Part shown: piece after piece, positions 4,762 to 61,996 of the stretch
Layout of the letters: each line of letters starts with the position of its first letter
Numbering within the stretch: position 1 is the stretch's first letter
Virus record (IMG/VR): IMGVR_UViG_3300032313_000518
Span: 46,969-110,968 of that record
Direction: 5' to 3' (one strand)
Length of the DNA stretch: 64,000 nt
DNA from: a virus
Program-made: the position numbers and the translations under genes
Notes under the pieces: model-generated
Database searches by the model: none
What the model saw: the letters and a program-made list of their open reading frames with translations, nothing else
Told to the model about the DNA's origin: nothing

Positions 4762-4870
4762 TTGGAAAAATACTAAAAAGATAATAAAAATAGGATTTTC
4801 CCAATAAGTTAAAAAAGGTTCTTTATATAATACAAAAATATTATAATTTTATTGATTATTAAGTATTTAA

Positions 4871-4878
4871 TATTTATT
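4871..4878 (+). promoter_or_regulatory. Putative late promoter TATTTATT
   Basis: Octamer variant 19 nt before ATG 4898. Confidence 0.55.
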
Positions 4879-4897: not shown

Positions 4898-5524
4898 ATG
4901 AACACGTTTCTTAAATTAGGTGTAATCGTTATAGCAATCGCAGTTGGAATATTTATATTCCGTGAATGTTCTTCATCGGATACGCCGGGTGAAACTGTGA
5001 ATGTGGATGGTAAAAAGTATGAGTTAATAAAACACAAAATTGATACTTTTGTTGTTGAGCACACTCAAATAAAATATAAAAGAGGACAAGATATCTACCA
5101 CGAAACAATTGTGGAAAAAGAAAAGAGAGTAGAAGTACCTATTTATATTAAATCTGATAGTGAAAGAATTGTCAGAGAGTATCATCAAAAAGTTTTGTAT
5201 AAAGATAAGTTAGTATTAGAAAATAATTTGGGAACAATTGAATTAACTGATACTATATCTATGAATAAGATTATTGGCAGAAAGTGGAACGCTCAAATAA
5301 GAGAAAGAACCATAACTGATACCAAAATAGTAAAAGAGTTACCAAAGAATCAAGTCTACATTGGAGCACAAACTATAATTGGGAATTCAACTGTAATGGC
5401 TGGACCACAACTTACATTGAAAACTAAAAAAGATAATATGTATGGTGCCGGAGTATTGATTGATGGTAATGGAAACAAATACTTAGGAGTTTCAGTTGGT
5501 TGGAAAATTAGACTTAAAAAATAA
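4898..5524 (+). CDS. Membrane-anchored protein with C-terminal beta-strands (possible spanin-like envelope protein)
   Basis: N-terminal hydrophobic helix followed by Cys; C-terminal amphipathic strands ending GVSVGWKIRLKK. Confidence 0.5.
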   Translation: MNTFLKLGVIVIAIAVGIFIFRECSSSDTPGETVNVDGKKYELIKHKIDTFVVEHTQIKYKRGQDIYHETIVEKEKRVEVPIYIKSDSERIVREYHQKVLYKDKLVLENNLGTIELTDTISMNKIIGRKWNAQIRERTITDTKIVKELPKNQVYIGAQTIIGNSTVMAGPQLTLKTKKDNMYGAGVLIDGNGNKYLGVSVGWKIRLKK

Positions 5525-5525
5525 A

Positions 5526-6332
5526 ATGCTCAACGAGTGTATCATTGTATCTAAAGAAGTTGGTGATAAGTTCATCTTAGCTAAAAATAGAGATAGAGCT
5601 TACAAACCAAAATTAGAAATTATCCACACTATCATAAATGGTGTGGAGGTTGCATACATTCACGATATGATTACCGATTGGAGTGAGGGTATGAACGAGT
5701 TTGGAATTGGTATTGTAAATTCAGCTCTAATGGTAGGACATGATGAGGCAGAAGCAAAGTTGGTAAAGAAGAGTGGTAAACCATCCAAAGATGGAAAGAA
5801 AATTAGAACTGCACTTTCACAAAAAACTTTAAGAGAAGCAATCAAAGCAGCAGTATTAACTGATGGTGGTGTAAACGGACATACATTTGTTTCATCTCCA
5901 AAGTATATGGTTAGTATTGAAAAGACATCAAAACACAGACCTAATATTATTTTACACAATATGGAAAATCCAGTTGTTCGTACAAATCACGGACATATGT
6001 TTACTGATGCTGGATACACACATGGACAAAAATACTTATCATCTAAAATGAGAAAGATATCAGCTGAAAAATCAGTTGATAAAGTTGAAGATTGGAAAGA
6101 GATTGCAAATGCAATGAGAAAAGAATTCTTTCCAAAACAATCTCAACTTAATATGGCAAGAAAATCTAAAGAGATGTTCACATCATCTCAAACTGTACTT
6201 AACCTTACTGATAGAATATTACAAATAGAATATTTTACTGATAACGTCCAAGAGTTTGTTGGTATAACTAATAAGTTACCAAAGGACTACAAAGCTAAAA
6301 TCAGTATCGTAGTAAAACCAATTCAATCCTAA
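5526..6332 (+). CDS. Ntn-hydrolase (NRDE/C45/C59-like); start corrected to ATG 5526
   Basis: CIIV...LAKNRDR, EGMNEFGIGI and RTNH motifs; ATG lies just after the upstream stop. Confidence 0.75.
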   Translation: MLNECIIVSKEVGDKFILAKNRDRAYKPKLEIIHTIINGVEVAYIHDMITDWSEGMNEFGIGIVNSALMVGHDEAEAKLVKKSGKPSKDGKKIRTALSQKTLREAIKAAVLTDGGVNGHTFVSSPKYMVSIEKTSKHRPNIILHNMENPVVRTNHGHMFTDAGYTHGQKYLSSKMRKISAEKSVDKVEDWKEIANAMRKEFFPKQSQLNMARKSKEMFTSSQTVLNLTDRILQIEYFTDNVQEFVGITNKLPKDYKAKISIVVKPIQS

Positions 6333-6383: not shown

Positions 6384-6776
6384 ATGTCAACCGATTTCGA
6401 ATTATTCAAAGGTAAAACATTAGGTTCACTTTTTGAGGACATCTATAATAACCAAACACAAAAGAAAGCAAAAATATCCGAACTAATCATTGAACTAAAA
6501 AAAATGGTTAGACACGCAGGTGATATGGCTGTTATAGGTCCTTTAATTAGAGATTTAATAGATACATCGGTAAAGAATGATGACCAATTGGTTAAGTTGG
6601 CAAACCTTGCTCAAAAACTAATAGTATCTGAAAAAAAATCGGAGGGGGATGATGGATTCCTTTCAGCATTTGAAAAAGAACAATTACTAAAAGATATTGA
6701 AGATACTCAATTAGAATTAGAAAGAGTAGATGAATTAGAAAACGAAATAGAGGAGCTTAAATTAAAAGTTAAATAA
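6384..6776 (+). CDS. Hypothetical coiled-coil protein
   Basis: 130-aa ORF, helical, coupled to the next gene. Confidence 0.7.
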   Translation: MSTDFELFKGKTLGSLFEDIYNNQTQKKAKISELIIELKKMVRHAGDMAVIGPLIRDLIDTSVKNDDQLVKLANLAQKLIVSEKKSEGDDGFLSAFEKEQLLKDIEDTQLELERVDELENEIEELKLKVK

Positions 6777-8010: not shown

Positions 8011-10158
8011 ATGTCTTGGGACACATTTAAAGAAACTATATTAATAGTTGCAAACAATCCTAAAAGTATACCTGATAGAAATACTGTTGCAAAACTTTAT
8101 GCAAATGCATATGATACTGCTATAAAAAATGGAGGAGATACTAAAAACCAAACCCGTTTAATTAAAGGTAATGTTGAAAGTATGAGAGTAGCGTTTTTAG
8201 CTGCATTGGAAAAGGGTGTTACAACCTATGGACCTTATGATTTAGTTGCTCAAATGGGAGATGGTGTTAAGGCATATTGGGCAAATGCTACAATGGATAA
8301 GTATCCGGTTCCAATTGAATTACCCAATGGTGCGGTTGCCAACATAAACATTGTAGAAAATAACATAATTGAGGTAGGTGAGTGGTTAGAACCACTATCA
8401 ACACCATCTGCACCAAAGCCAGCAAATACACCACCTCCTGCACCAAAACAAAACCCAAAACCTTCCGATGATTATAATTTAAGAAAAATGTTGGATGATG
8501 CTGGTTATGCGGCCATAAAAAAATATGAAGATGAGGATGGTTGTGTTTCTTTAATAAGTGGTAAAACGGGATTGCAACTTACGGATTATAAAAAAGTTGG
8601 ATGTGGTGGGTATAACCCTGGACAAGATGCTCAAGAAAGAATTATAAAAGAAAGAATAAAAAATGTATTAGGATTTGATGTTTGGGCTAAAATACCACCC
8701 ATATTTAGAATGCAAATATATTCATTTATGTATAATGCCGATTCTACTGCAGATACGGCAACTGTAAAGGGTGACAAATTCAGATGGATTGCTGGCTTGT
8801 TGCAGGCAGCAAAAAATGAAACATCTCAATATAGAGCAAGCGTTAGAACGAATCAAATAATAAGAGATTTTGAAATACCTTATTTGAAAACATTAACAAC
8901 TGCTGATTTTCAAAAAATCTATCCAACTTATCTTAAAGTTTTAGATGAGATGTACAAAGCCATTAGTGATGCTGAGTTACAATCGTTAGCAAATAAAACA
9001 ACAAATGCAGAAAAAGCATTAGTTGTAAAGAAAGCATCAGGTTATAATCTTACTTGGAAAGATAGACCTTCTAAAATTCAAACACATTACGAATCCTCTA
9101 TTTTTGGAAAAAAAGATAAATCACCGCAAGAAGTTGGACAAACTAATGACCCATCGAAACAAACAACGGAAGAACCAACATCTAATATTCCATTAAAATC
9201 AGGTCCTATTCCACCAACAAATAATACTTCACTATTTGTTGATTATTTTATAAGAACCGCAATTGACCATTTAAATACAATAAAAGGAATAATTATTACA
9301 CAATCAAGTTATGGTATAATTAATGGACCTGGTGTATTAAATTGGAAAGGATATACGGTAAAAGGTACTGTTCAGACAAGACAAATTATTTCAGTTGGTG
9401 ATTTTACAGACAAATTAAAAGATTATTTAATATCTCAAGGTATTGTAGAAACAGAAGAAATAGTAGATGAAAATTCAGATGAAAAGGGAGGTGATGCCGT
9501 AACCTACACAAAATATAAAGGAGGAAGCAAACAACAAAAAAATGCAATGGCAAGTGCACTATTAAATGTACACAAAATCGGTACATATACAGATTATAAA
9601 GATTGGAAACAACCAAAGGGTAAAAATAATTTTTCAGTAGGATTTGATGTGGGACTTTGTGCTCAATGGACATTTAATATAGCTAAAAATTATGTTTTTT
9701 ATCTTAATGGGTTTGGTTCAAAATCAGATGGTCCTGCTTATAGAGCAGGTGCTAATGCAAATGAACGTGGATACTGGACTTCATTAAAATTTTTAGGTTA
9801 TAGATTGGATATTGATACTACGTTTGAATCCAAAGCACCTTTAGTAGCATTATTATCAGATGCTGAAAAATTTAATATAGGTGATGTTGCTGTATATTTT
9901 GGAACAGATGGTATAGAATTACCAGGTCATACACAAATATTTACAGGTGGATATGGTAGCGATTATCCTAAAGCCGGATATGGTACAGCAGCACCCAATC
10001 GTCCCAAGAAAAAATATTTAGAAAAGGGAGGGTGGGATAATGTTTCAAATTGGGAAACTGATGCTTACAACAACTATGGGAGTTCAATGGTTTATAGAAG
10101 TAAATCCAGTTCATCAAAAACTTGGAGATTATTGATATTTAGAGCACCATCCAAATAA
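8011..10158 (+). CDS. Tail/baseplate-associated protein with C-terminal CHAP/NlpC-like peptidoglycan hydrolase domain
   Basis: GLCAQW...GANAN...GDVAVY...GHTQIF Cys-His pattern; position between gp5-like gene and gp25. Confidence 0.55.
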   Translation: MSWDTFKETILIVANNPKSIPDRNTVAKLYANAYDTAIKNGGDTKNQTRLIKGNVESMRVAFLAALEKGVTTYGPYDLVAQMGDGVKAYWANATMDKYPVPIELPNGAVANINIVENNIIEVGEWLEPLSTPSAPKPANTPPPAPKQNPKPSDDYNLRKMLDDAGYAAIKKYEDEDGCVSLISGKTGLQLTDYKKVGCGGYNPGQDAQERIIKERIKNVLGFDVWAKIPPIFRMQIYSFMYNADSTADTATVKGDKFRWIAGLLQAAKNETSQYRASVRTNQIIRDFEIPYLKTLTTADFQKIYPTYLKVLDEMYKAISDAELQSLANKTTNAEKALVVKKASGYNLTWKDRPSKIQTHYESSIFGKKDKSPQEVGQTNDPSKQTTEEPTSNIPLKSGPIPPTNNTSLFVDYFIRTAIDHLNTIKGIIITQSSYGIINGPGVLNWKGYTVKGTVQTRQIISVGDFTDKLKDYLISQGIVETEEIVDENSDEKGGDAVTYTKYKGGSKQQKNAMASALLNVHKIGTYTDYKDWKQPKGKNNFSVGFDVGLCAQWTFNIAKNYVFYLNGFGSKSDGPAYRAGANANERGYWTSLKFLGYRLDIDTTFESKAPLVALLSDAEKFNIGDVAVYFGTDGIELPGHTQIFTGGYGSDYPKAGYGTAAPNRPKKKYLEKGGWDNVSNWETDAYNNYGSSMVYRSKSSSSKTWRLLIFRAPSK

Positions 10159-16927: not shown

Positions 16928-19900
16928 ATGCTAACAGAAGCAGAAAAAGCCGAAGCAAAACTAATTGGTCTTACAGAAGAACAATACCTAATGTTAAAAA
17001 AAAATAACACATTAGAATTGTATAAAGCTGCAGGTAATTTAGCAGATATTGGTAAAAAAATATCATCGGGTGAAATTAATTTGTTTCCTAATGGGTTAAA
17101 TATACCATTACAATTGTCAGCATTACAATTTGGTGATACTGTAATGCCATCTTATACTGTAGTTGAATATCCAGATGGTAGACCTCCTTTTATTTATAAT
17201 TCAGCAAACCCATACAACGTACCAAAAAGCGAGAAAGAATGGAAAGACATATTAAAAGGTGCAATATCTGCTAAAAATGATTTAACTGGTGATATACCAT
17301 TACCACCGGTGGACCCAACTGATTTAAATTTACCAGAAAATACTATATTTACTGTATTTGTTGCATTAAATGGGGCTAATAATTCTGCAGCTTTTATTAA
17401 AGGTGGTGAAACGTTTAGATTAAAACAAGGTTTAAATGAAATAAAAGTAGATGTTGGTACAAAACTTACATTTATAAGTGCTGACCAAAAACTATATAAC
17501 GTATCGGAAATAAATGTAGTATCCGCTAATGTAAAGAAAAATGTAAAATCATCAAAAACTACTCCAATTATTACATGTGAAATTACTGTGAATGGGGTTT
17601 ACAATGTAGATATTTATACGGAATCGAATACAGTAACTCAAACTACAAATCTTATTTTACCTGAAATAAAATTAGGAAACTCCGAATTAAAACGCTACAA
17701 TATAAATACTGATACTGGAATACCAATTGGTATTATTAAAATAGGTAAAGTTGAGCAAGTAACGGCATACATAAATCGAAAATCTTATAAATTTACAAAT
17801 TTAGGCACAGAAACAAATGCAGTAATTGTAATACCTGATTCTGCATTTACACAAGTTGGAAGCTATAAAACTATTTTAGTTCCTTATAATTCAAGTGTAG
17901 GTGATGGTAATGCGTTAGAATTTCAAATTAGTGCGGTTGAGGAAATGAATGTGGGTACGCCTGATATACGAAACATAACATTCCCATCAGTATTATATGG
18001 ACCAGATTATGTTGGTACGGATGTTGATTTTCAAATTTCTTATGATTCTGTTGATACTGATTTTGTACGAATAAAAAAATTAGGAGGAACATCTTATATT
18101 CAAGTAACCAAAGCTGGAACTGTTGATTTAAATTTTAAAAAATTATTAGAATTAGATGGTACGCAAATTTCGGAAGATGAAGATAAAATACGTCTTAGTT
18201 TAGTTTTAACTCCATATAATGTAAGTGGATATAAAGTATTAACAGGACTGGGAGAAAGAATTTCAATTAACTTTGATAAAGGTAATTTAACAATACCAAG
18301 ATCAGTAGCTATCAATAGAATTGCGGAAGCATTTACTTCTCAATTTGATGATAGTATATTTGTAGATGAAACTTCAAAATACCTTACTCACTTATTACAC
18401 TTAGGTAATGGTGATAATAAAGTAATTACAACTTGGGTTGGTAGTCAAAATTCTTTAATTGTAAAATTATATGAACCACTATCAACTACCATACAAACAA
18501 ATAGACAAGTTTGGATTTCAAAAGTTCAATCAAATCCAATTGTTGAAACCGTAACTTTAAATGAAACTGTACAAAATGTATGTACACCATTAAAAGGACC
18601 TAATTTTTCATTAGAGCCTGATAATGGAATTGGGTATAAAGTATTTAATGATTTAATTGGTAGTGGTTCTAATACTTCAAATGATTTAGTAACAAAATAT
18701 TTAGAAACATCTGGTATTGATACTACTAAATTAAGTATAGCTTACGCAAGTGGTTCATCTACATCAGCCGAATATTTGTTTACTAATTTTGTAAACTTTA
18801 GTTCTGCTGAAGAAAGAGTTAATAATTTCTTTTATAAAATACAATTATTACAAAATTATAAAACCAGATATTCCGAATTAATAGCAGATACATTTATATC
18901 ACCATATGAAGATGTTGATGCAACCATATTAACAGAAGATGGATTGTTTAAAACAGTTACTGAAGATGGTATTTTTGAAATTAACTGGGAAATTTTTCAA
19001 TATAAAGGTGTTGCTCAATTAGAAGAAGCAAAAATTTTATTAAATACAATAAATGGTATAATTAAAGGATTTGATGGATTTGAAAATTGGTTATATACAG
19101 ATACCACATATACAACATTATCGTACCCAAAAACAACATATACTCATCCTATAACAGGCTTAACAACAAACATTATCAAACCAACAACTGATAATGATGT
19201 AATTAGTTGGTATGAATATATTATAGATGTTTGTGCTGAATTTGATAAATACAATCCAAATTATTTAGTAAATAATATACCAACATTTATAAGCGAAGAC
19301 TATGATAACAGTGATTTCATAGTGTTCTTAGATATGATTGGGCAGCATTTTGATATTATTTGGGTGTACATAAATGCTCTAAAAGGAAATAAAATATTAG
19401 AAGAAAAACAAATAAAAGGGGTTACTAATAAATTTATTTACAACCTATTGGAATCAATGGGTTGGGAAGGTAAGCGAGCGTTTGATTCGGAGTTTTTATG
19501 GGAATATGTATTTGGAACTAATAAAGAAGGTTTTCAAAAATATTCAATGCCATTAGAAGATGCAAACAATCAAGTTTGGAGAAGAATCTTAAACAATCTA
19601 CCATATCTATTAAAACATAAAGGAACATCAAGAGCTATGAAAGCTGTAATGGCTTGTTATGGCGTACCCCAATCCATGTTGACGATAATGGAATTTGGTG
19701 GACCTCAAGACCCAACCAAAAGTGGTAGTACTAAATTTACATTTGATGATAGAACTGCTGCAATTAAATTAAAAAATGATTCATCTGTTGTTGTACCTTG
19801 GAAATCGGTAAATGGTTCATACCCTAAAAGTATTGAATTCAGAATAAAACCTGATAGTGTAAAAAATACTAGAATAATATCAAGTTCTCAATTCTATTTA

Positions 19901-21871
19901 GATATAGAACAAACTACTGGTTCATTTGCAACCTTAACATTTGGATTGGGCAATAATGCAATATCAGCACCTTATATAGAAACACCATTTATATCGGCTT
20001 CCGTATCAACTACATATTTTCCATCTGGATTTGATTATGTTTTAGGACCTGATACTGTTAGTGGTAGTTCATATTTTCCACTATCTACTGAACATTATAG
20101 TAATGTTTTAATAAATAGATATCCTTTGGGGGGTCAATTATCATCTGCATCTTTGTATGAAGTATTACTAAAAACATCCGATGGGCAACGAATAATCAAT
20201 TCGGTAAGTATGTCTTTTGTTAGTACAAAAGAATGTTGGGAAAGTGGTTCTTATTTATCAATTGGTAATGATTTTATAGGTAATTTAGATGAATTCCGTT
20301 TATGGAAAGTTCCATTACAACCATCTAAATTTGAAAATCATACATTACACCCAGACGCAATAAATGGTAATTCATATACTGCATCAACTGCAGATTTAAT
20401 GTTCCGTTTGGATTTTGAATATCCAAAAGATAGAATATTAGACCCTTATATTAAAAACGTATCATTGAGTAATCAATACGCTGAAAATTCAGCTACTGCA
20501 AGTAATATTTGGGCAAATTCATCATATCCATATCAATACGAAGCATATGATAGAACAGTAACAGCTACTGTTCCATCTTTAGGATTAAATTATTCAAACA
20601 AAATAAGATTAGAAGAACAACAACTTATTGGTAATTTATCACATAAAGTAAGAGCAACCAACAAATCATTTGATAGAGCACCAATTGATTCAAACCGATT
20701 GGGTATATTCATGTCTCCAATAAAAGAGTTGAATATGGATATTGTAAAAGCATTTGGTGATTTTAATATTGATAATTATATTGGAGACCCATCGGATGAA
20801 TACAAAAATTCATATAGAGAACTTGATAATTTAAGAAAATATTACTTCCAACGTTTGGATAGAAATATGAATGAATATATCCAATTAGTAAGATATATTG
20901 ATAAATCTTTATTTGATGTATTGGATGATTTAGCTCCTGCTAGAGCAAAAGTTTCTAAAGGTCTTTTAATCGAACCTCATTATTTAGAAAGAAGTAAAAC
21001 TAAATGGGATAAACCAAAATCAGAAAGAGGTGATTATGAAAGTGTTGTAAATGCAAATCAGTACAATGAAATAGAATTTTCATATGAAAGTAAAGATGCT
21101 TTAATAGATGCAACTCAAATAGCAACATTAGTTTCCGATTTACCATCGTATGATGCTTTAGTAAATACTGATGAAGTTTATCTAATTGAATCGGAAAACA
21201 ATGGATATGAAACGGAAATATCCACTAATGATGTTTATGTAATAGAAACGGAATATCCAACATATCCACCTACTGGTTCTGTAGAAATATATATACCAAC
21301 TGGTGCCACTATAACTGCTGAAATTGATTCGTTTAATACAACCATTGTTGGTATGAATCCTGAATCATTGGCAAACGCTGGTTTTGGTTTATATGGAGAA
21401 AATGGTAATGCTATTGTATCTACTATTGAACCTATTTTTGGTAATTATCAAACAAGTGGAAGTAGAAAAAGTGTATTTTTAGTAAAAGAACAATTTACTA
21501 CAAAAGTTTCAACTCAAACAAAAGGATGGCCTGTAAATGGCGCACCTTTGGGTGAGCAAGTTTTATATGAAGATATAGTAAACACAAAATACAGATATAA
21601 AGTTTCAGTTTTACCATTTAGTGGAAGTATCACTATTGGAAATCAAACAACAGAAGTGACTTCATTGAATGGGTATTTTCCAACACACTATAAGTTTGTA
21701 AACAACTTATCCAACGGATTGCAAAAATTATTTTGGAAAGGTTCTGTACAAAGTGCAGCAACAACACCTGATGGTTTAGACCCAGTTGAAATATTTACTA
21801 CCAATCCTAATATACTTAAAGTTGCTAAAACGGGTAGAGGAAGTGGTGAACCAATACTTATTGTGGAGTAA
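16928..21871 (+). CDS. Large baseplate wedge protein (gp7-like) with LamG-like domain
   Basis: WRRILNNLPYLLKHKGT motif; SIEFRIK...F.GNLDEFRLW; LAPARA..GLLIEP..LER. Confidence 0.65.
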   Translation: MLTEAEKAEAKLIGLTEEQYLMLKKNNTLELYKAAGNLADIGKKISSGEINLFPNGLNIPLQLSALQFGDTVMPSYTVVEYPDGRPPFIYNSANPYNVPKSEKEWKDILKGAISAKNDLTGDIPLPPVDPTDLNLPENTIFTVFVALNGANNSAAFIKGGETFRLKQGLNEIKVDVGTKLTFISADQKLYNVSEINVVSANVKKNVKSSKTTPIITCEITVNGVYNVDIYTESNTVTQTTNLILPEIKLGNSELKRYNINTDTGIPIGIIKIGKVEQVTAYINRKSYKFTNLGTETNAVIVIPDSAFTQVGSYKTILVPYNSSVGDGNALEFQISAVEEMNVGTPDIRNITFPSVLYGPDYVGTDVDFQISYDSVDTDFVRIKKLGGTSYIQVTKAGTVDLNFKKLLELDGTQISEDEDKIRLSLVLTPYNVSGYKVLTGLGERISINFDKGNLTIPRSVAINRIAEAFTSQFDDSIFVDETSKYLTHLLHLGNGDNKVITTWVGSQNSLIVKLYEPLSTTIQTNRQVWISKVQSNPIVETVTLNETVQNVCTPLKGPNFSLEPDNGIGYKVFNDLIGSGSNTSNDLVTKYLETSGIDTTKLSIAYASGSSTSAEYLFTNFVNFSSAEERVNNFFYKIQLLQNYKTRYSELIADTFISPYEDVDATILTEDGLFKTVTEDGIFEINWEIFQYKGVAQLEEAKILLNTINGIIKGFDGFENWLYTDTTYTTLSYPKTTYTHPITGLTTNIIKPTTDNDVISWYEYIIDVCAEFDKYNPNYLVNNIPTFISEDYDNSDFIVFLDMIGQHFDIIWVYINALKGNKILEEKQIKGVTNKFIYNLLESMGWEGKRAFDSEFLWEYVFGTNKEGFQKYSMPLEDANNQVWRRILNNLPYLLKHKGTSRAMKAVMACYGVPQSMLTIMEFGGPQDPTKSGSTKFTFDDRTAAIKLKNDSSVVVPWKSVNGSYPKSIEFRIKPDSVKNTRIISSSQFYLDIEQTTGSFATLTFGLGNNAISAPYIETPFISASVSTTYFPSGFDYVLGPDTVSGSSYFPLSTEHYSNVLINRYPLGGQLSSASLYEVLLKTSDGQRIINSVSMSFVSTKECWESGSYLSIGNDFIGNLDEFRLWKVPLQPSKFENHTLHPDAINGNSYTASTADLMFRLDFEYPKDRILDPYIKNVSLSNQYAENSATASNIWANSSYPYQYEAYDRTVTATVPSLGLNYSNKIRLEEQQLIGNLSHKVRATNKSFDRAPIDSNRLGIFMSPIKELNMDIVKAFGDFNIDNYIGDPSDEYKNSYRELDNLRKYYFQRLDRNMNEYIQLVRYIDKSLFDVLDDLAPARAKVSKGLLIEPHYLERSKTKWDKPKSERGDYESVVNANQYNEIEFSYESKDALIDATQIATLVSDLPSYDALVNTDEVYLIESENNGYETEISTNDVYVIETEYPTYPPTGSVEIYIPTGATITAEIDSFNTTIVGMNPESLANAGFGLYGENGNAIVSTIEPIFGNYQTSGSRKSVFLVKEQFTTKVSTQTKGWPVNGAPLGEQVLYEDIVNTKYRYKVSVLPFSGSITIGNQTTEVTSLNGYFPTHYKFVNNLSNGLQKLFWKGSVQSAATTPDGLDPVEIFTTNPNILKVAKTGRGSGEPILIVE

Positions 21872-23891: not shown

Positions 23892-24863
23892 ATGCTTAAA
23901 GAAATTTCAAAATCTGATATTATTGTTAGACCTTTTAAGGTTTATAAAGAATGGACATTAGATGAAAACGATATACATCCTATATTTGCTTTAAGTGGAA
24001 GTAGTGGTAATTTTGATGATACCATTGATGAAGTTAGTTATGGTGTTTCTAAAAAAAGTTTATACGCTTCGATTAAATCGCAGTTCTACCGTAATTCAGC
24101 AACAGCATCTATTTTTACCGAAGTTGGTAGACGAAAATCATATGCTTCAACCGATGAAAGAAATTTAGAAGATGAGTTGGTTGTATTTTCAATTCCACAA
24201 ACTTATTATGGTGAGGGTATTAAAGTTGGTACTGTTACTTTATTGGATGATGACACAAATAGGACTTTATCCGATGATGGGTATTCTAATTTAATAGATT
24301 CTGGAAGTAACATAAAAGGAAATATATTCTATGATAGAGGTATGGTTATTGTAACGAAAGATATTACATCTGGTTCAAACTTCAATACTTTTAGATTAGA
24401 TTATCGTTCTACCAAAACAATTTATGAAAATGAAATATTCATATCAGTTTTAGAAAACGAATTTAATCATTCTCAAAATCCAACTGCGGTTTATGAATCT
24501 GGAGCAGGAACACAAACATTAATATTTACAGACCCAAATGATATAACAGGTGTAAACAAATTTTCAAAGAAAGTATATGCATCTGGTGTAAAATATGTAA
24601 AGAAAAAAACTAATTTACCTAACGGAAGTGGTTCTTTGGATTATAGAATACAATCAAAATTAGACCCAACAAAGTACGGAAGTTTTGATGATTATGATGA
24701 GTATGGAACTACTGATAGAACTGGTTCTTATTTAGCTCCTTATATCACAACAATTGGGTTATACGATGATAGTTTAAATATGGTAGCTGTTGCAAAATTA
24801 CCCCAACCCATAAAATCACTTCCAGATTACCCTGTAAACTTTATAATACGTTTCGATACATAA
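23892..24863 (+). CDS. Baseplate structural protein, paralog of 22568..23806
   Basis: Shared G..FY..G and YITTIGLYDD..NMVAVAKLPQPIK motifs. Confidence 0.65.
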   Translation: MLKEISKSDIIVRPFKVYKEWTLDENDIHPIFALSGSSGNFDDTIDEVSYGVSKKSLYASIKSQFYRNSATASIFTEVGRRKSYASTDERNLEDELVVFSIPQTYYGEGIKVGTVTLLDDDTNRTLSDDGYSNLIDSGSNIKGNIFYDRGMVIVTKDITSGSNFNTFRLDYRSTKTIYENEIFISVLENEFNHSQNPTAVYESGAGTQTLIFTDPNDITGVNKFSKKVYASGVKYVKKKTNLPNGSGSLDYRIQSKLDPTKYGSFDDYDEYGTTDRTGSYLAPYITTIGLYDDSLNMVAVAKLPQPIKSLPDYPVNFIIRFDT

Positions 24864-45825: not shown

Positions 45826-46515
45826 ATGGCAAAAGAATTCAATCGAAAGTACATGCATCCGACTCGTAGAAAGTTATCGGATATGGTATTACGTGGGCAG
45901 GAATATGAAACAAATGCACAAATCTCATTATCAGTAAATCCAGAAGCTAATATTACTAGAGAAGTTGGAGAAACTTGGACTGATTCAAATGGAGTTCAAT
46001 GGGAACAAAAAAAATGGGGTAAGGAGCAAATATCATCATTAAGTGAAACAATGTCTAGTGTAAGAAATTACCTATCAGAACTTAATAGATGTAAAGGTAC
46101 TGAATGTAAAACAATCAAATTAGGTAGAGTAGATAAAAAGTTAATATCTAAAACAGGATATTGTACAACTTGTCTTGCTAAAAAAGAATTTGAAATAAGA
46201 GTAGATGGGTTGTGGGATGCGTATGAAACCTACAAATTAACATCAAATATGATTGACCACGGAACTGATGTACTTGCTCAATTTAATCAAGCATATAAAG
46301 ATGCAAGACAGGAATATGAGTATGTAAACGAAAATGGTACAACTGAAAAGTGGACTATGGAAAGACCTGTTGAGGAATTAAAAGCAGAAATATTGCTTGA
46401 AATTACCAACGTAGAAGCTGAAGTTGCACAAGTTACAAAATTAAGAAATGAAGCTTGGGAGTTACTAAAAGATAAAAATTACGATTTAGTAAAGCCACCT
46501 AAAGATTTAGTATGA
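45826..46515 (+). CDS. Cys-containing protein upstream of TerL (possible small terminase by position only)
   Basis: CKGTEC and CTTC motifs; ATGA overlap with TerL. Confidence 0.5.
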   Translation: MAKEFNRKYMHPTRRKLSDMVLRGQEYETNAQISLSVNPEANITREVGETWTDSNGVQWEQKKWGKEQISSLSETMSSVRNYLSELNRCKGTECKTIKLGRVDKKLISKTGYCTTCLAKKEFEIRVDGLWDAYETYKLTSNMIDHGTDVLAQFNQAYKDARQEYEYVNENGTTEKWTMERPVEELKAEILLEITNVEAEVAQVTKLRNEAWELLKDKNYDLVKPPKDLV

Positions 46516-48104
46516 GTAACGGAATACAACAAAAGAAATCTCTAAAGCAAATCATAGGAGAAGAATACATAAAGTGTGCTAGTGACCCTATCCACTTTAT
46601 GAAGAAATATTGTATGATTCAGCATCCGGTGAAAGGTAAAATACCATTTCATCTATTTCCTTTTCAAGAGAAAACACTAACCGAATTTAAGAACCATAGA
46701 TTTAATATCGTTCTTAAATCTCGTCAAACTGGTATCTCCACATTATCAGCAGGTTATGCGTTGTGGAGTATGTTATTCAATACGGATTTTAACGTATTGG
46801 TTATTGCAACAAAACAAGAGGTTGCAAAGAACTTAGTAACAAAAGTAAGAGTAATGTACGAACTATTACCATCGTGGTTAAAGGGTGGTGCATTGGAGGA
46901 TAACAAACTCTCACTTAAATTACAAAATGGTTCACAAATCAAAGCAATTGCTTCCTCACCTGATGCAGGACGTTCGGAAGCCCTATCACTACTAATATTT
47001 GATGAGGCAGCTTTCATTGATGATATCGATGAGATTTGGAAAGCAGCTCAATCTACACTATCAACGGGTGGGGCGTGTATTGCCCTTTCAACTCCCAATG
47101 GTGTGGGTAATTGGTTTCATCAAACGTGGAGTGATGCAGAATCTTCTATAAATCCATTCAACACAATTCGTTTACATTGGACAGTTCATCCAGAAAGAGA
47201 CCAGACGTGGAGAGATGAGCAAGAAAGATTGTTGGGAAGAAAAGGAGCTGCACAAGAATGTGATTGTGACTTTATTTCATCTGGAGATAACGTAATTGAC
47301 CCAGAACTCTTAATGTTCTACAAAGAAACTTATGTTCAAGACCCTGTTTCAAAAGGTGGTATAGATAATAACTTTTGGAGATGGGAATATCCTACATCAA
47401 ATGCATCTTATATGGTTGTAGCTGACGTTGCAAGGGGAGATGGTGCCGATTATTCTACTTTTCACGTTATGGATATTGTAACTGCAACTCAAGTTGGTGA
47501 ATACAAAGGTAAGATGGATACAAAAGATTTTGGAAATTTGTTAGTAGCAATATCAACTGAATATAATGATGCACTATTAGTAATTGAAAACGCAAACATT
47601 GGTTGGGCAACAATACAACAGGTAATAGATAGAGGGTATCGTAACCTATTCTATATGAGTAAAGATTTGAAATATGTAGATGTTGAGAATCAATTAAACA
47701 ATAGATACAGAGCACAAGATAGAGGATTGGTTGCTGGTTTTTCAACAACATCAAATACAAGACCTTTAATCATATCAAAGTTGGATGATTATTTCAGAGA
47801 GAAATCCGTTATAGTTCGTTCATCTCGATTGATTGATGAATTGTTTACATTTATATATTCAAGCGGTAGAGCACAAGCTATGAAGGGTTATAATGATGAC
47901 TTGGTAATGGCATTCTCTATTGGATTATGGGTAAGAGATACCGCACTTCGTTTAAGACAAGAAGGTATTGATTTAACAAAAATGGCAGTAGCTGGAATTA
48001 CTGCAAATACATACGAAGGTGTGTATTCACCATCTAATATGGATGAGAATCCTTGGAAGATGAGAGTGGGTGATACGTTCGAAGATTTATCCCAATGGTT
48101 ATAG
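46512..48104 (+). CDS. terL: Terminase large subunit (gp17-like)
   Basis: KSRQTGIST, LIFDEAAF, STPNG, ADVARG.G.DYS, DDLVMA. Confidence 0.95.
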   Translation: MSNGIQQKKSLKQIIGEEYIKCASDPIHFMKKYCMIQHPVKGKIPFHLFPFQEKTLTEFKNHRFNIVLKSRQTGISTLSAGYALWSMLFNTDFNVLVIATKQEVAKNLVTKVRVMYELLPSWLKGGALEDNKLSLKLQNGSQIKAIASSPDAGRSEALSLLIFDEAAFIDDIDEIWKAAQSTLSTGGACIALSTPNGVGNWFHQTWSDAESSINPFNTIRLHWTVHPERDQTWRDEQERLLGRKGAAQECDCDFISSGDNVIDPELLMFYKETYVQDPVSKGGIDNNFWRWEYPTSNASYMVVADVARGDGADYSTFHVMDIVTATQVGEYKGKMDTKDFGNLLVAISTEYNDALLVIENANIGWATIQQVIDRGYRNLFYMSKDLKYVDVENQLNNRYRAQDRGLVAGFSTTSNTRPLIISKLDDYFREKSVIVRSSRLIDELFTFIYSSGRAQAMKGYNDDLVMAFSIGLWVRDTALRLRQEGIDLTKMAVAGITANTYEGVYSPSNMDENPWKMRVGDTFEDLSQWL

Positions 48105-48154: not shown

Positions 48155-48592
48155 ATGATTAAGTTAAAATCTTTACTGAACGAAGATGAGTATATTGACC
48201 AAGCATATGCTATGGGTGATACTCCGCAAGATAATCCAATTGATGATTATGATGAATTGGATGTTGAGCAAGAAGATATGGATGATTTTATTACATTCTT
48301 AAAAGGGTACTCAAACGAATTGGATGAGGCGAATTGTAATTGTGTATTTGAAGCAGAATATCAGGGAAGAGAAGTAAAGTTGGGTAAACCGATGCAAGGC
48401 GATGTGAAGAAATTTAAGGTCTACGTCAAAAACCCAAAAACAGGTAAGGTGATTAAGGTGAATTTTGGACAGAAAGGAATGGTTATTAAAAAAGACAATC
48501 CAGCAAGAAGAAAATCATTTAGAGCAAGAATGAATTGTGATAATCCCGGTCCAAGAACAAAGGCAAACTATTGGAGTTGCCGAAAATGGTAA
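48155..48592 (+). CDS. Probable internal head protein: acidic pro-region plus basic C-terminal domain
   Basis: MIKLKSLLNE leader; KKFKVYV...RRKSFRAR.NC...YWSCRKW domain. Confidence 0.6.
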   Translation: MIKLKSLLNEDEYIDQAYAMGDTPQDNPIDDYDELDVEQEDMDDFITFLKGYSNELDEANCNCVFEAEYQGREVKLGKPMQGDVKKFKVYVKNPKTGKVIKVNFGQKGMVIKKDNPARRKSFRARMNCDNPGPRTKANYWSCRKW

Positions 48593-48603
48593 AATAGAAA
48601 ATT

Positions 48604-50367
48604 ATGGCAGAAGTAAATGATGATAGAAGTTTTTTTGGTAGATTAAGAAAGTTATTCTCAACACAAGCTGTTGTGCGTATTGATAAAGACGGTAGACGTA
48701 AAGTTGTAGATACCGATGAGAGACAATTCAATACAAACTTTATGAACCTACGTGATAGGTACACAAAGTTACAAAAATCATTCTACGAACAACAAGGTGG
48801 TGCACAATCAATGGCATATGCACAAGTTCGCAGAGAATTATTCAGAGATTATGATGCAATGGATAATGACCCGATACTTTCATCGGCATTAGACATTTAT
48901 GCCGATGAATCAACTACAAAAGATGAGTATGGTGAGGTATTAACAATCAAATCATCTAACGAAAATGTAAAAGAAGCATTACACAACCTATTCTACGATG
49001 TAATGAACGTAGAGTTTAACTTATGGCCTTGGGTTCGTAATATGGTTAAGTATGGTGATTTCTTTTTGGCATTGGAGATTGGTGAGAATGCTGGTATTGT
49101 AAACGTAAAACCATATTCAACATATAATACTGAAAGATTAGAAAATACTGACCCACAAAATCCTAACTATGTTAAGTTTAAAGTGGAGTTGGATGAGATT
49201 GGTAAAAAAGAATATGAGAACTATGAAATGGCTCACTTCCGTTTACTTTCAGATACAAACTTCCTACCATACGGAAAATCAATGTTGGAAGGTGCACGAA
49301 GAATTTGGAAACAATTAACTCTTATGGAAGATGCGATGTTAATTCATCGTATTATGAGAGCACCTGAAAAGAGAGTATTCAAAATTGATATTGGTAACAT
49401 TCCACCGCAAGAGGTTGATAACTATATGCAAAAGATTATCAACAAAATGAAAAAAACTCCATTCGTTGATAGAAATACAGGAGATTACAACTTAAAATAC
49501 AATATCCAAAACCTTACGGAAGATTTCTTCTTACCTGTTAGAGGTGGAGATAGTGGTACATCAATTGAAAACATTAGTGGTTTAGAATATACTGCAACGG
49601 AAGATATTGATTACTTAAAGAACAAATTATTTGCTGCATTGAGAGTACCAAAGGCTTACTTATCATATGATGAGAACGTAAATGGTAAAGCAACTCTTGC
49701 GGCAGAGGATGTTCGTTTTGCAAGAACTGTGGAAAGAATTCAAAGAACGGTGGTAAGTGAATTAACTAAAATAGCAATTGTTCACTTAGCAGCTCAAGGT
49801 ATTGATGATGCTGAAATGGTAAACTTTGAATTAACTCTTACAAACTCATCTACAATCTATGAGCAAGAGAAAGTAAATCTTTGGAGTGAGAAAGTAAGAT
49901 TGGGAACTGATATTAAAGCAATGAATATGTTATCTACGGATTGGGTATATCATAATGTATTTAATATGAGTGAAGAGGAGATAAATACTGAAAGAGCTAA
50001 GGTAATATTAGATATCAAAGATAGATTTAGACACAACTCAATTGAACAGCAAGGTGAAGACCCGGCAAATCCACCAAAACAACAAAATGTGGAGCAGGAG
50101 ATAGAGGAGTTGAAATTGGGTATGAATCAAGACAAAGGTGGTAGACCAAGAGAAGGTAATACTTATGGTAAAGATAAGCATCCATATGGTAGAGACCCTT
50201 TGGGTGATAAAGAAAATCACGGAGAAAGAAAAAGAGAAAATAGAAACATACCAAGTGCAAAATTAGCAAAAGAATATGTGAATGGAATATCAGCTAAAAG
50301 AAAGGTTTTGATTGAAAAATCAGGTATGTTAGATGAAAAAAATCTATTAGATGACACGAAAATTTAA
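48604..50367 (+). CDS. gp20: Portal protein (gp20-like)
   Basis: LMEDAMLIHRIMRAPEKRVFKIDIGN, EDFFLPVRG, L.VPK. Confidence 0.95.
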   Translation: MAEVNDDRSFFGRLRKLFSTQAVVRIDKDGRRKVVDTDERQFNTNFMNLRDRYTKLQKSFYEQQGGAQSMAYAQVRRELFRDYDAMDNDPILSSALDIYADESTTKDEYGEVLTIKSSNENVKEALHNLFYDVMNVEFNLWPWVRNMVKYGDFFLALEIGENAGIVNVKPYSTYNTERLENTDPQNPNYVKFKVELDEIGKKEYENYEMAHFRLLSDTNFLPYGKSMLEGARRIWKQLTLMEDAMLIHRIMRAPEKRVFKIDIGNIPPQEVDNYMQKIINKMKKTPFVDRNTGDYNLKYNIQNLTEDFFLPVRGGDSGTSIENISGLEYTATEDIDYLKNKLFAALRVPKAYLSYDENVNGKATLAAEDVRFARTVERIQRTVVSELTKIAIVHLAAQGIDDAEMVNFELTLTNSSTIYEQEKVNLWSEKVRLGTDIKAMNMLSTDWVYHNVFNMSEEEINTERAKVILDIKDRFRHNSIEQQGEDPANPPKQQNVEQEIEELKLGMNQDKGGRPREGNTYGKDKHPYGRDPLGDKENHGERKRENRNIPSAKLAKEYVNGISAKRKVLIEKSGMLDEKNLLDDTKI

Positions 50368-52087: not shown

Positions 52088-52675
52088 ATGAAGAATCTTT
52101 TAATAGAAACCAAATTATTCGAAGGAAAGGTAGAAGAGGATGCTGGTGGTAGAACTATCGTTAAAGGTGTTCTTCAAAGAGCTGGTGCGGAGAATCAAAA
52201 TGGTAGAGTATATCCAAAGCCTACATTAATGAGAGAAGCTCAAAAATATGAGCAACTTATCAAAGAACGTAGAGCATTAGGTGAATTAGACCACCCCGAT
52301 TCAACTGTAATCAATTTAAAGAACGTATCACACAATGTTAGAGAAATACATTGGGAGGGAGATGATTTATGTGGTACGGTTGAAATCCTTGCAACCCCAT
52401 CTGGTAATATCCTTAAAGAATTACTTAAAGCTGGTATCCTATTAGGTATATCATCAAGAGGTATGGGTTCTACAAAACAAATGGAAGGAAATAAAGTAGA
52501 AGTTCAGGAAGATTTTGAGCTTATAGGTTGGGATTTTGTTTCTAATCCATCTACACATGGTGCATTTATGGTACCTGTAAACGAATCAGTAACAAAACAA
52601 ATTGGAACTGATGTTTGCGGAGACTATTGCAAAGCACAAGATTTAATGAGAGAAATTATAACTGAAATATCATAA
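52088..52675 (+). CDS. gp21: Prohead protease (gp21-like)
   Basis: NQNGRVYP, ALGELDHP, GISSRGMGS, WDFVSNPS.HGA. Confidence 0.95.
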   Translation: MKNLLIETKLFEGKVEEDAGGRTIVKGVLQRAGAENQNGRVYPKPTLMREAQKYEQLIKERRALGELDHPDSTVINLKNVSHNVREIHWEGDDLCGTVEILATPSGNILKELLKAGILLGISSRGMGSTKQMEGNKVEVQEDFELIGWDFVSNPSTHGAFMVPVNESVTKQIGTDVCGDYCKAQDLMREIITEIS

Positions 52676-60337: not shown

Positions 60338-61996
60338 ATGGCAAATTTTGATTTATCCAAGTTAATGGAAGGCAAAAACCCACAAGCAGTAATGTTGGCT
60401 GAAACACGTCAATTGAAATCTAAGTGGGAGAAAACCGGTCTATTAGAAGGTATGAAAGATAGAGACCAACACTCTATGGCAGTTCTTTTAGAGAACCAAG
60501 CTAAGCAATTGTTGGACGAGGCAACTCAAACTGGTACTTCTTCTGGTTCAGAAGAGTGGAGTGGTGTAGCTTTACCTTTAGTAAGAAGAATCTTCGGTGA
60601 GATTGCTTCTAAAGAATTCGTTAGTGTACAACCTATGAACTTACCTTCTGGTCTTGTATTCTTCTTAGATTTCAAATATGGCTCAGCACAAGGAGCAGCA
60701 GGACAATTCGGTGGAAAATCACTTTTTGGTGGTACTAACGCAACTGGTTCAGCAGCTAACTTTGGTAGAACTGATGCAGCAACAGGTGGTTTATATGGTG
60801 AAGGCCGTTATGGTTATTCAGTAAACGATGCTACTGCAACTATTACTACTACTCAAGTAAATGGTACAATCACTTCAGCATCTGGTGTAACTTGGTCTGA
60901 AGTTGGATATGATTCAGCAATTTCTGCATCAGTTTCGGCTGGTAAAGTATTTAAATTAACTGTATCTGGTTCAGCAATCGCTTCAACTTTTGATTCTAAT
61001 GCAGTTCGTTCTACATTAGTAACAAACGCTGGTGTATTCGCTAACTTAAACCAATACAACTATTACAACTCAACTTCTGGATTAGCGGTATTATACGTTT
61101 CTGGTTCTACTTTAGCAGCAGCTGGTGGTCCTTCAAACACTATCGTTTACTCTGAAGTTCCTGTAGCTTATGATAGAGGAGATTTCGAAGATTCAACTGC
61201 AAACTCTGCTGGTAACACAACAACTGCATTGGATATCCCTGAAATCGACTTAGAATTGAAATCAGAGGCAATCGTTGCTAAGACTCGTAAGTTGAAAGCA
61301 GTTTGGACTCCTGAATTAGCACAAGACTTAAATGCATATCACTCAATCGATGCAGAAGCTGAATTAACTTCTATGTTATCTGATTATATCTCATTAGAGA
61401 TTGACTTAGAAATCTTAGATATGTTAAAGAGCAACGCATTGACTACTGAATACTGGTCTGCAACTATTGGTGAGGAATTACTTAACAATGGTGCAACTGG
61501 ACAAGCAGCTTGGTCTACTGGTAACTCTTCATTGGCTTACCAAAAGAACACTTGGTTCCAGACTTTAGGAACTAAAATCAATAAGGTATCTAATAAGATT
61601 CACCAATTAACATTAAGAGGTGGAGCTAACTTCATCGTTGCTTCTCCTGATGTTTGTACTATCTTAGAATCTATTCCTGGATTCGTAGTAAACGCTGATA
61701 AAGATGCAACATCTTTCGCAGCTGGTGTAACTCAAGTAGGTGCTATGGCTAATCGCTACACTGTTTACAAAAACCCTTATATGACTTCTAACGAAATCTT
61801 ATTAGGATATAGAGGTAACAACTTCTTAGAGACAGGTGCAGTTTACGCTCCATATGTTCCTTTGATTATGACTCCTTTAGTGTACGACCCACAAAACTTC
61901 ACACCAAGACGCGGAGTTATGACTCGTTACGCTAAGAAAATGGTCCGTCCGGAATACTACGGAAAGATTTATGTTAAAGATTTACAAAACATCTAA
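60338..61996 (+). CDS. gp23: Major capsid protein (gp23-like)
   Basis: LPLVRR, VQPMNLPSGLVF, A.TRKLKA.WTPELAQDL.AYH..DAEAEL, YAPYVPL, GVMTRYA. Confidence 0.97.
   Translation: MANFDLSKLMEGKNPQAVMLAETRQLKSKWEKTGLLEGMKDRDQHSMAVLLENQAKQLLDEATQTGTSSGSEEWSGVALPLVRRIFGEIASKEFVSVQPMNLPSGLVFFLDFKYGSAQGAAGQFGGKSLFGGTNATGSAANFGRTDAATGGLYGEGRYGYSVNDATATITTTQVNGTITSASGVTWSEVGYDSAISASVSAGKVFKLTVSGSAIASTFDSNAVRSTLVTNAGVFANLNQYNYYNSTSGLAVLYVSGSTLAAAGGPSNTIVYSEVPVAYDRGDFEDSTANSAGNTTTALDIPEIDLELKSEAIVAKTRKLKAVWTPELAQDLNAYHSIDAEAELTSMLSDYISLEIDLEILDMLKSNALTTEYWSATIGEELLNNGATGQAAWSTGNSSLAYQKNTWFQTLGTKINKVSNKIHQLTLRGGANFIVASPDVCTILESIPGFVVNADKDATSFAAGVTQVGAMANRYTVYKNPYMTSNEILLGYRGNNFLETGAVYAPYVPLIMTPLVYDPQNFTPRRGVMTRYAKKMVRPEYYGKIYVKDLQNI

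Follow-up and report, generated by a model that had tools for sequence, protein, structure and literature searches.

The window, by which we mean the whole 64,000-nucleotide stretch of DNA analysed here, comes from a large lake phage related to T4 and encodes a predicted cysteine N-terminal-nucleophile (Ntn) hydrolase in which the residue modeled at the nucleophile position, Cys5, is preceded by a four-residue leader of the same (L/I/V)-x-E class as the sites ascribed to the phage's own head protease. With moderate confidence, and reasoning from the sequences, we propose that the head protease would activate the hydrolase and that the enzyme would be packaged. Direct support is at hand for the fold, for the nucleophile position, for the motif, for the presence of an S77 protease, for the occurrence of the site on capsid and cargo proteins, and for the phage-only range of the family. 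The features of the window on which the argument draws are collected in Table 1, and here and below an arrow marks the end of a leader or propeptide.

Table 1. Features of the window that bear on the hydrolase and its proposed activation
Feature	Position	Strand	Evidence or remark
Exact copies of ATATTTATA	1856, 2925, 4949, 6348, 10181, 16893, 17610, 21892, 23865, 24868, 30036, 38626, 42313, 42721, 50385, 62084, 63096	+	
ATATTTATT, one-mismatch copy of ATATTTATA	4870..4878	+	20 nt before the gene pair o4898 and Ntn hydrolase
Cys-Ntn hydrolase precursor gene (predicted), 268 aa	5526..6332	+	Translation; phage branch of AAT / peptidase C45
Leader M-L-N-E, four codons, P3 Leu and P1 Glu	5526..5537	+	Proposed prohead-protease site
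Cys5 codon TGT	5538..5540	+	Predicted N-terminal nucleophile once the leader is gone; invariant in alignments A1 and A3
KNRDR motif, K20-N21-R22-D23-R24	5583..5597	+	K20, R22 and D23 invariant family-wide (A3 columns)
Large terminase	46512-48104		
gp20-type portal	48604-50367		
T4 gp21-type prohead serine protease (Peptidase_S77)	52088..52675	+	Proposed activator; PF03420 E 7.9e-26; PHROG 207 E 2e-50
Head polyprotein, 684 aa	56941..58995	+	Repeated (S/V)-V-N-E↓A and V-V-T-E↓G junctions
gp23-type major capsid protein	60338..61996	+	Pfam Gp23 E 3.5e-76 from near residue 72; PHROG 138
L59-D60-E61 of the capsid protein	60512..60520	+	Final L-x-E ahead of the mature capsid domain

The family was placed solely by fold comparison and by scans of diverse relatives. 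Searches with the single hydrolase sequence against Pfam, PHROGs and PDB sequences gave nothing useful, the same was true of profiles A1 and A3 against PDB sequences, and the window protein matched neither Pfam AAT (PF03417) nor TANGO2 (PF05742) at E values up to 1. The AlphaFold (AF2) model, made from 34 homologs, has a pLDDT of 82 and a pTM of 0.85, and Foldseek returned 93 PDB matches to it at E <= 0.001, the best of which are all Cys-Ntn enzymes: acyl-CoA:isopenicillin N acyltransferase (IAT), CV2077, bile salt hydrolases (BSH), penicillin V acylases (PVA), NAAA and acid ceramidase. IAT is the best fold match (Foldseek E 1e-7, VIA Z 17.5), and VIA-align gave Z scores of 15-18 over residues 5-268 against IAT, NAAA, acid ceramidase, BSH and PVA, all sharing the four-layer alpha-beta-beta-alpha fold. 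Residue 5 of the model aligns with the N-terminal residue of mature NAAA, IAT (C103) and acid ceramidase (C143), and likewise on BSH C2, PVA C1 and PLBD C249, so that the Ntn-hydrolase call made in the first-pass annotation is borne out by the modeled fold and by the placing of Cys5 on known nucleophiles. Cys5, K20, R22, D23, N57, N65 and N154 do not vary among 56 diverse relatives, and R212 hardly does; the KNRDR motif presumably supplies the counterpart of the Arg and Asp found after the nucleophile in BSH/PVA-type enzymes, which would be BSH R18/D21. Pfam AAT was matched by 26 of these 56 representatives at E <= 0.01 (best 8e-10), with one relative, P0147, scoring 30.9 bits against a cut-off of 23.2, whereas TANGO2 was weakly matched by two of the 56 (E 0.006), AAT matches being 13 times as frequent. 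The hydrolase family is a diverged phage branch of AAT / peptidase C45, nearer to AAT/C45 than to NRDE/TANGO2, and the label "NRDE-type" first attached to the protein is only approximate. Unrelated proteins in two other viral contigs (L089:5437 and L090:2598) begin MCIIVSKE and then diverge (..RLEGCFENNSDGA); these may constitute another Met-Cys N-terminal-nucleophile family.

The translated hydrolase begins MLNE-CIIVSKEVGDKFILAKNRDR and continues further on with ...L-A-K-N-R-D-R. The gene upstream ends at 5524, and apart from the ATG only a TTG at 5496 could serve as an in-frame start. Upstream stop codons were looked for in the DNA of 80 related IMG/VR loci, and in many relatives a stop lies immediately 5' of the ATG (stop-MINE↓C, stop-MKLSE↓C, stop-MKRILTE↓C), so the short hydrolase leaders are real and are not gene-calling errors; the start MLNE-CIIVS...KNRDR, as originally read, is thereby confirmed. 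The leader appears unstructured in the AF2 model, with residues 1-3 at a pLDDT below 50.

What precedes the cysteine follows a narrow rule. In 109 of 120 close homologs it is [LIVM]-x-E, the other 11 start Met-Cys, and no further form occurs among the 120. P3 in 131 distinct Glu-ending leaders is Leu in 82, Ile in 36, Val in nine, Met in three and Thr in one (aliphatic or Met in 130 of 131), P2 takes many different residues (N, T, Q, S, E, D, V, K and I among them), and no conservation is seen at P4 to P6. Conservation of (L/I/V)xE before the Cys is thus far above chance, which upholds the earlier observation that the cap ends in this pattern. Leaders in the family range from three residues (MNE↓C) to over 12. 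In the 887 close homologs, found by a word-indexed search, the domain is standalone with a leader of 3-12 residues or none, and many other family members are embedded in proteins 400-2800 aa long, their Cys being, for example, residue 1034, 1235 or 1558; inside such polyproteins the motif is retained before a Cys that lies 75 to several hundred residues into the chain. In a second clade of 74 representatives, mostly proteins of more than 400 aa, the Cys is preceded by (K/R)-x-(A/G/S). Of 141 diverse representatives that could be classified, [LIVM]xE, [KR]x[AGS] and Met-Cys together account for all but four. With the leaders left out of tree building, these classes are strongly clustered, with 11 changes compared with 66 when the labels are shuffled, and the Met-Cys start arose at least six times within the E-type clade. 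The Met-Cys forms are genuine, having a stop four codons upstream and no alternative start, and one of them occurs in a genome with S77. Because they arose at least six times, once alongside S77, latency or masking is not obligatory; the unmasked enzyme appears to be tolerated in the cytoplasm, and the zymogen state would be no necessity.

Among the metagenome proteins are giant forms (P0184, P0135, P0165 and P0166) in which the Ntn domain is joined with a Fe/Mn superoxide dismutase, a LigT 2H phosphoesterase, DUF5661 or DUF5872, further partners being poly(A)-polymerase-type nucleotidyltransferase and zeta-toxin-like kinase domains; from their domain make-up these proteins look like multi-enzyme cargo. 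Within the (K/R)-x-A clade, contig IMGVR_UViG_3300025669_000020 (L183-L187) has RVASR(H/F/Y) in frame at five places, of which one, MVEKPLAARVASRHLEGHHNPQTRTA↓G, is a leader at the N-terminus; the RVASR pattern gave 10 forward matches there and 0 for the control. The peptide may serve as a common leader or a linker tag, and RVASR is not enriched in the other four of the five second-clade contigs.

The candidate activator belongs to a T4-like head module in the same window. In T4, gp21 cuts after L/I-X-E and removes propeptides of 7 to 65 residues, the major capsid protein gp23 being cut after residue 65; residues 4 and 7 of the 10-residue T4 CTS target, residues 8 and 10 (P3 and P1) direct cutting, and Asp at P1 blocks it (PMC9026906). 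The propeptide of the window's own capsid protein contains LME, LAE, LLE and LLE and terminates in LDE↓A, so that L59-D60-E61 is the likely capsid maturation site; with the polyprotein junctions of Table 1 this substantiates the shared site class that the first-pass annotation had seen at the capsid and polyprotein. Of five large contigs from the LxE/Met-Cys clade four had S77, including one with a Met-Cys form, and neither S77 nor S78 was found in five contigs of the (K/R)-x-(A/G/S) clade; as these measure 105-288 kb and are estimated to be only 23-79% complete, such a protease may lie outside the sequenced part. In the genome as a whole, N-terminal [LIVM]xE occurs in 40 of 127 ORFs, compared with about a fifth expected from a rough motif-frequency estimate, and [LIV]NE was seen 39 times against 32 expected; the N-terminal enrichment is weak and is no evidence by itself. 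Two more proteins have four-residue ML-x-E starts, MLTE↓A (16928-21871, 1647 aa) and MLKE↓I (23892-24863, 323 aa), whose likeness to MLNE↓C could be chance. A protein of the window (48155-48592, 145 aa) and one from elsewhere in the genome (C1:11859-12611, 250 aa) have in common the leader MIKLKS(I/L)L(S/N)ED and are otherwise alike only in a short NCxNP stretch. They may share an L-x-E leader or be distant paralogs, and because the NCxNP stretch hints at paralogs the pair was not counted as independent.

The clearest view of the site as a tag comes from a cultured relative, Chryseobacterium phage MA9V-1. Its hydrolase homolog, MA9V1_182, starts MTSANNNEFLNE↓C, a 12-residue leader with the ending EFLNE↓C, and F-(I/L/V/F)-N-E occurs in 18 coding-strand copies in MA9V-1, compared with 3-4 for a control pattern. 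F(I/L/V)NE ends the leaders of the unrelated proteins MA9V1_146 (MKNFFSFINE↓A), MA9V1_150 (MKTFTCFINE↓A) and MA9V1_184 (MKGFFINE↓A). The Gp23-type capsid protein MA9V1_152 carries the pattern twice in its propeptide, with FLNE↓S at residues 59-62, and the 1347-aa polyprotein MA9V1_151 (L180:26501-30544), the N-terminal part of which is an S77 protease domain and which also contains DUF5856, has six (F/L)(I/L/V)NE sites. We take the arrangement of the MA9V-1 leaders, with Phe at P4, Ile or Leu at P3 and Glu at P1, to match the FIAE end of the T4 IPIII CTS. F(I/L/V)NE cannot be an Ntn self-cleavage site, since unrelated proteins cannot share one, and its presence on unrelated proteins and on the capsid propeptide favors a protease acting in trans; to judge from the sequences, the MA9V-1 sites make up what appears to be a cargo-tag system in a cultured phage. 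As a side observation, F(I/L/V)NE also forms the last residues of MA9V1_150.

Expression and gene order bear on when and where the enzyme would be made. There are 17 exact plus-strand copies of ATATTTATA in the window; 15 were checked by eye and all lie directly upstream of plus-strand gene starts, and the element precedes most structural genes. One-mismatch copies (ATATTTATT) precede the genes at 4898, 48155 and 56941, the last of these being the head polyprotein gene. ATATTTATA is likely to be a phage promoter element, perhaps a late promoter, and the hydrolase would be expressed late with the structural genes from the ATATTTATT copy upstream. The order hydrolase, 6384, 6777, 8011, 10214 and then a gp25-like gene is conserved, and baseplate genes adjoin the hydrolase. 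The gene at 6384-6776, encoding 130 aa, comes after that of the hydrolase in almost every close relative, the Met-Cys forms among them, with 62-74% identity, and its product retrieved only unnamed viral clusters in the ESM Atlas. The 715-aa protein encoded at 8011-10158, upstream of the baseplate wedge gene, has a weak ESM Atlas likeness (<0.9) to lysozyme, SLT, NlpC/P60 and CHAP/VgrG3-type cell-wall hydrolases and may be a tail-hub lysin.

A profile search gave 516 cluster representatives of the hydrolase family, and more than 400 loci are present in IMG/VR, the longest contig measuring 289 kb. Of 50,697 phage records, only those of the Chryseobacterium phages MA9V-1 and MA9V-2 contain the family. 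A scan of 185,579 prokaryote species, one genome each, gave two family loci, both on MAG contigs, the scan having used two peptide patterns that diverged copies may escape. On these searches the family appears to be in effect phage-only.

How, then, might Cys5 become an N-terminus? In the course of events that we propose, an inactive Cys-Ntn amidohydrolase precursor of the AAT/C45 type, able to work only with Cys5 as its free first residue, would be made late along with the structural proteins and would enter the assembling prohead core, where the S77 protease would cut Glu4↓Cys5 during head maturation. The mature enzyme, of ~30 kDa, would remain in the capsid and enter the next host with the DNA, as do T4 Alt and the internal proteins, and would there hydrolyze an amide bond, most likely that of an N-acyl amide. 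The close fold relatives all cut non-peptide N-acyl amides or dipeptides, and for this reason an acyl-amidase is the best guess at its activity, by analogy. The cut itself, the packaging, the delivery and the substrate are what we infer; the agreement of the leader motif with the published gp21 rule L/I-X-E, with its determinants at P3 and P1 (PMC9026906), supports cutting by the head protease, as does the difference in pre-Cys motif class between phage groups with and without detectable S77. Against it we count the size of the cap, four residues compared with seven for the shortest T4 propeptide, the distance of ~46 kb between the hydrolase gene and the head module, with baseplate genes adjoining instead, and the Met-Cys forms that arose at least six times in the same clade and show masking to be dispensable. 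The window's four-residue cap has none of the CTS-type targeting positions (4 and 7), and so there is no visible head-targeting signal. Of the original interpretation, which was that of a zymogen activated only by the prohead protease, the Cys-Ntn enzyme, its (L/I/V)xE cap, the S77 protease and the shared sites have stood, but the word "only" is too strong, given that the characterized internal-Cys relatives self-process and that Met-Cys forms exist, and the NRDE label fits only loosely.

Could the enzyme instead remove its own leader? Cys5 would attack the Glu4 carbonyl intramolecularly through an N-to-S acyl shift, the P1 Glu and the aliphatic P3 would serve self-cleavage, for example by being seated in the enzyme's own pocket, and packaging would be unneeded, the enzyme acting perhaps in the infected cell or at lysis. 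The closest folds do self-process, with PDB titles that include "precursor" and "self-activated" forms, and since all the characterized internal-Cys relatives (IAT, NAAA, acid ceramidase and PVA) do so, this is the default for the fold. Acidic P1 residues are found in self-processing Ntn enzymes, as in glycosylasparaginase (Asp151) and Bacillus subtilis PurF (...NEE↓C), and the MLG↓C of PVA is presumably an example of a short leader in the clan. The small P1 of the second clade (Ala, Gly or Ser) resembles Gly102↓Cys103 of IAT, the four-residue cap is without a CTS-like targeting part, the Met-Cys forms show that a mature enzyme is tolerated in the cytoplasm, and the P1/P3 pattern is what would be expected of any extended leader lying in a cleft, be it the cleft of a protease or the enzyme's own. 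We nevertheless hold self-activation to be on the unlikely side, as it leaves unexplained why the leader motif is identical to that of the phage's own protease, why F[ILV]NE stands on unrelated leaders and on the capsid propeptide of MA9V-1, and why the motif class shifts between phage groups with and without detectable S77. The P1 Glu of the window protein departs from the Gly↓Cys autoproteolysis signature of AAT/C45.

The many members within proteins of 400-2800 aa, beside SOD, LigT, nucleotidyltransferase and zeta-toxin-like kinase domains, could be taken to mean that the Ntn domain is chiefly a self-splitting joint, a Hint-like breaker of polyproteins at X↓Cys, with hydrolysis of other substrates secondary and the standalone copies remnants. 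This is highly improbable, because the 887 close homologs, with their short leaders or none, have nothing to split, and the full catalytic set is invariant, as fits a working enzyme. Hardly credible at all is that the leader is never removed, the Cys acting internally or having no catalytic role; processing has so far been unobserved for any member of the family, but catalysis in the Ntn fold uses the nucleophile's own free alpha-amino group as its base, Cys5 coincides on superposition with residue 1 of the mature relatives, and the repeated Met-Cys starts, from which methionine aminopeptidase removes the Met, show that a free Cys has been selected for.

Activation by the head protease, if it is correct for the window, may be one case of something broader. 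We suggest, tentatively and at somewhat less than an even chance, that capsid-maturation proteases create the catalytic N-terminus of packaged Ntn effectors in at least two phage groups of differing specificities, on standalone proteins and giant cargo alike: T4-type S77 phages with (L/I/V)-x-E, and very large phages, in which S77/S78 were not found, with (K/R)-x-(A/G/S). From the tripeptide before the Cys one could then read off the specificity with which a phage's maturation protease cuts, even where that protease is still unnamed, and in uncultured giant phages the leader classes would allow capsid cargo to be recognized, and protease specificity to be deduced, from sequence alone. Self-activation is the textbook property of Ntn hydrolases. 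Were a separate viral maturation protease to make the Ntn catalytic N-terminus, this would be a new activation route, and we found no paper in the literature that describes one. Enzyme activity would in that case be coupled to capsid maturation, and a large and widespread group of freshwater Bacteroidota phages would have a delivered amidase. MA9V-1, as a cultured carrier, allows a direct test; in the paper describing it the virion proteins were analyzed by SDS-PAGE alone.

Comparison with known systems sets the hydrolase between several of them. Its relatives in giant multi-enzyme proteins are reminiscent of the polyvalent proteins of phages and conjugative elements (Iyer et al. 2017, PMC5512222), for which delivery with the DNA and processing have been proposed, although the window hydrolase is standalone; the text of that paper contains none of the terms "N-terminal nucleophile", "acyltransferase" and "NRDE", and "penicillin" appears in a reference only. 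With TANGO2/NRDE proteins the hydrolase has in common a Cys near the start and N-R-D-(R/E) about 16 residues on, but the window protein starts MLNE-C instead of Met-Cys and its motif is NRDR. Cys5 superposes on Cys103 of IAT (PF03417, MEROPS C45; PDB 2x1c, 2x1d and 2x1e); IAT, however, self-cleaves at Gly102↓Cys103 with both chains retained, whereas the window protein has Glu at P1, a leader of four residues and no Pfam match, and its family is phage-only. PVA and BSH (C59), NAAA and acid ceramidase (C89) have the four-layer fold and the nucleophile position in common with it (Z 15-18), but no sequence-level relation to the family was found in Pfam, PDB sequence and profile searches, and these are cellular enzymes that act on known lipid, bile-salt or beta-lactam substrates and have no link to a viral maturation protease. 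In C59 a Met-Cys start is the rule and a short leader occurs in a few members, and the Gram-negative ones expose the Cys through removal of a signal peptide, so a Cys uncovered by a different protease is not without parallel. Like the gp21-cleaved head cargo of T4 (IPI, IPII, IPIII and Alt), the hydrolase is found with an S77 protease and has L/I-x-E directly before what would be the mature N-terminus. Unlike in that cargo, cleavage here would create the catalytic residue itself, and we know of no T4 cargo for which this is so. T4 Alt is a precedent for an enzyme as head cargo (PMC9026906). Compared with T4 leaders of 7-10 residues or more, the four-residue leader of the window protein is short and without targeting positions, whereas the homolog in MA9V-1 has a 12-residue leader with the Phe at P4 that is common to other MA9V-1 leaders.
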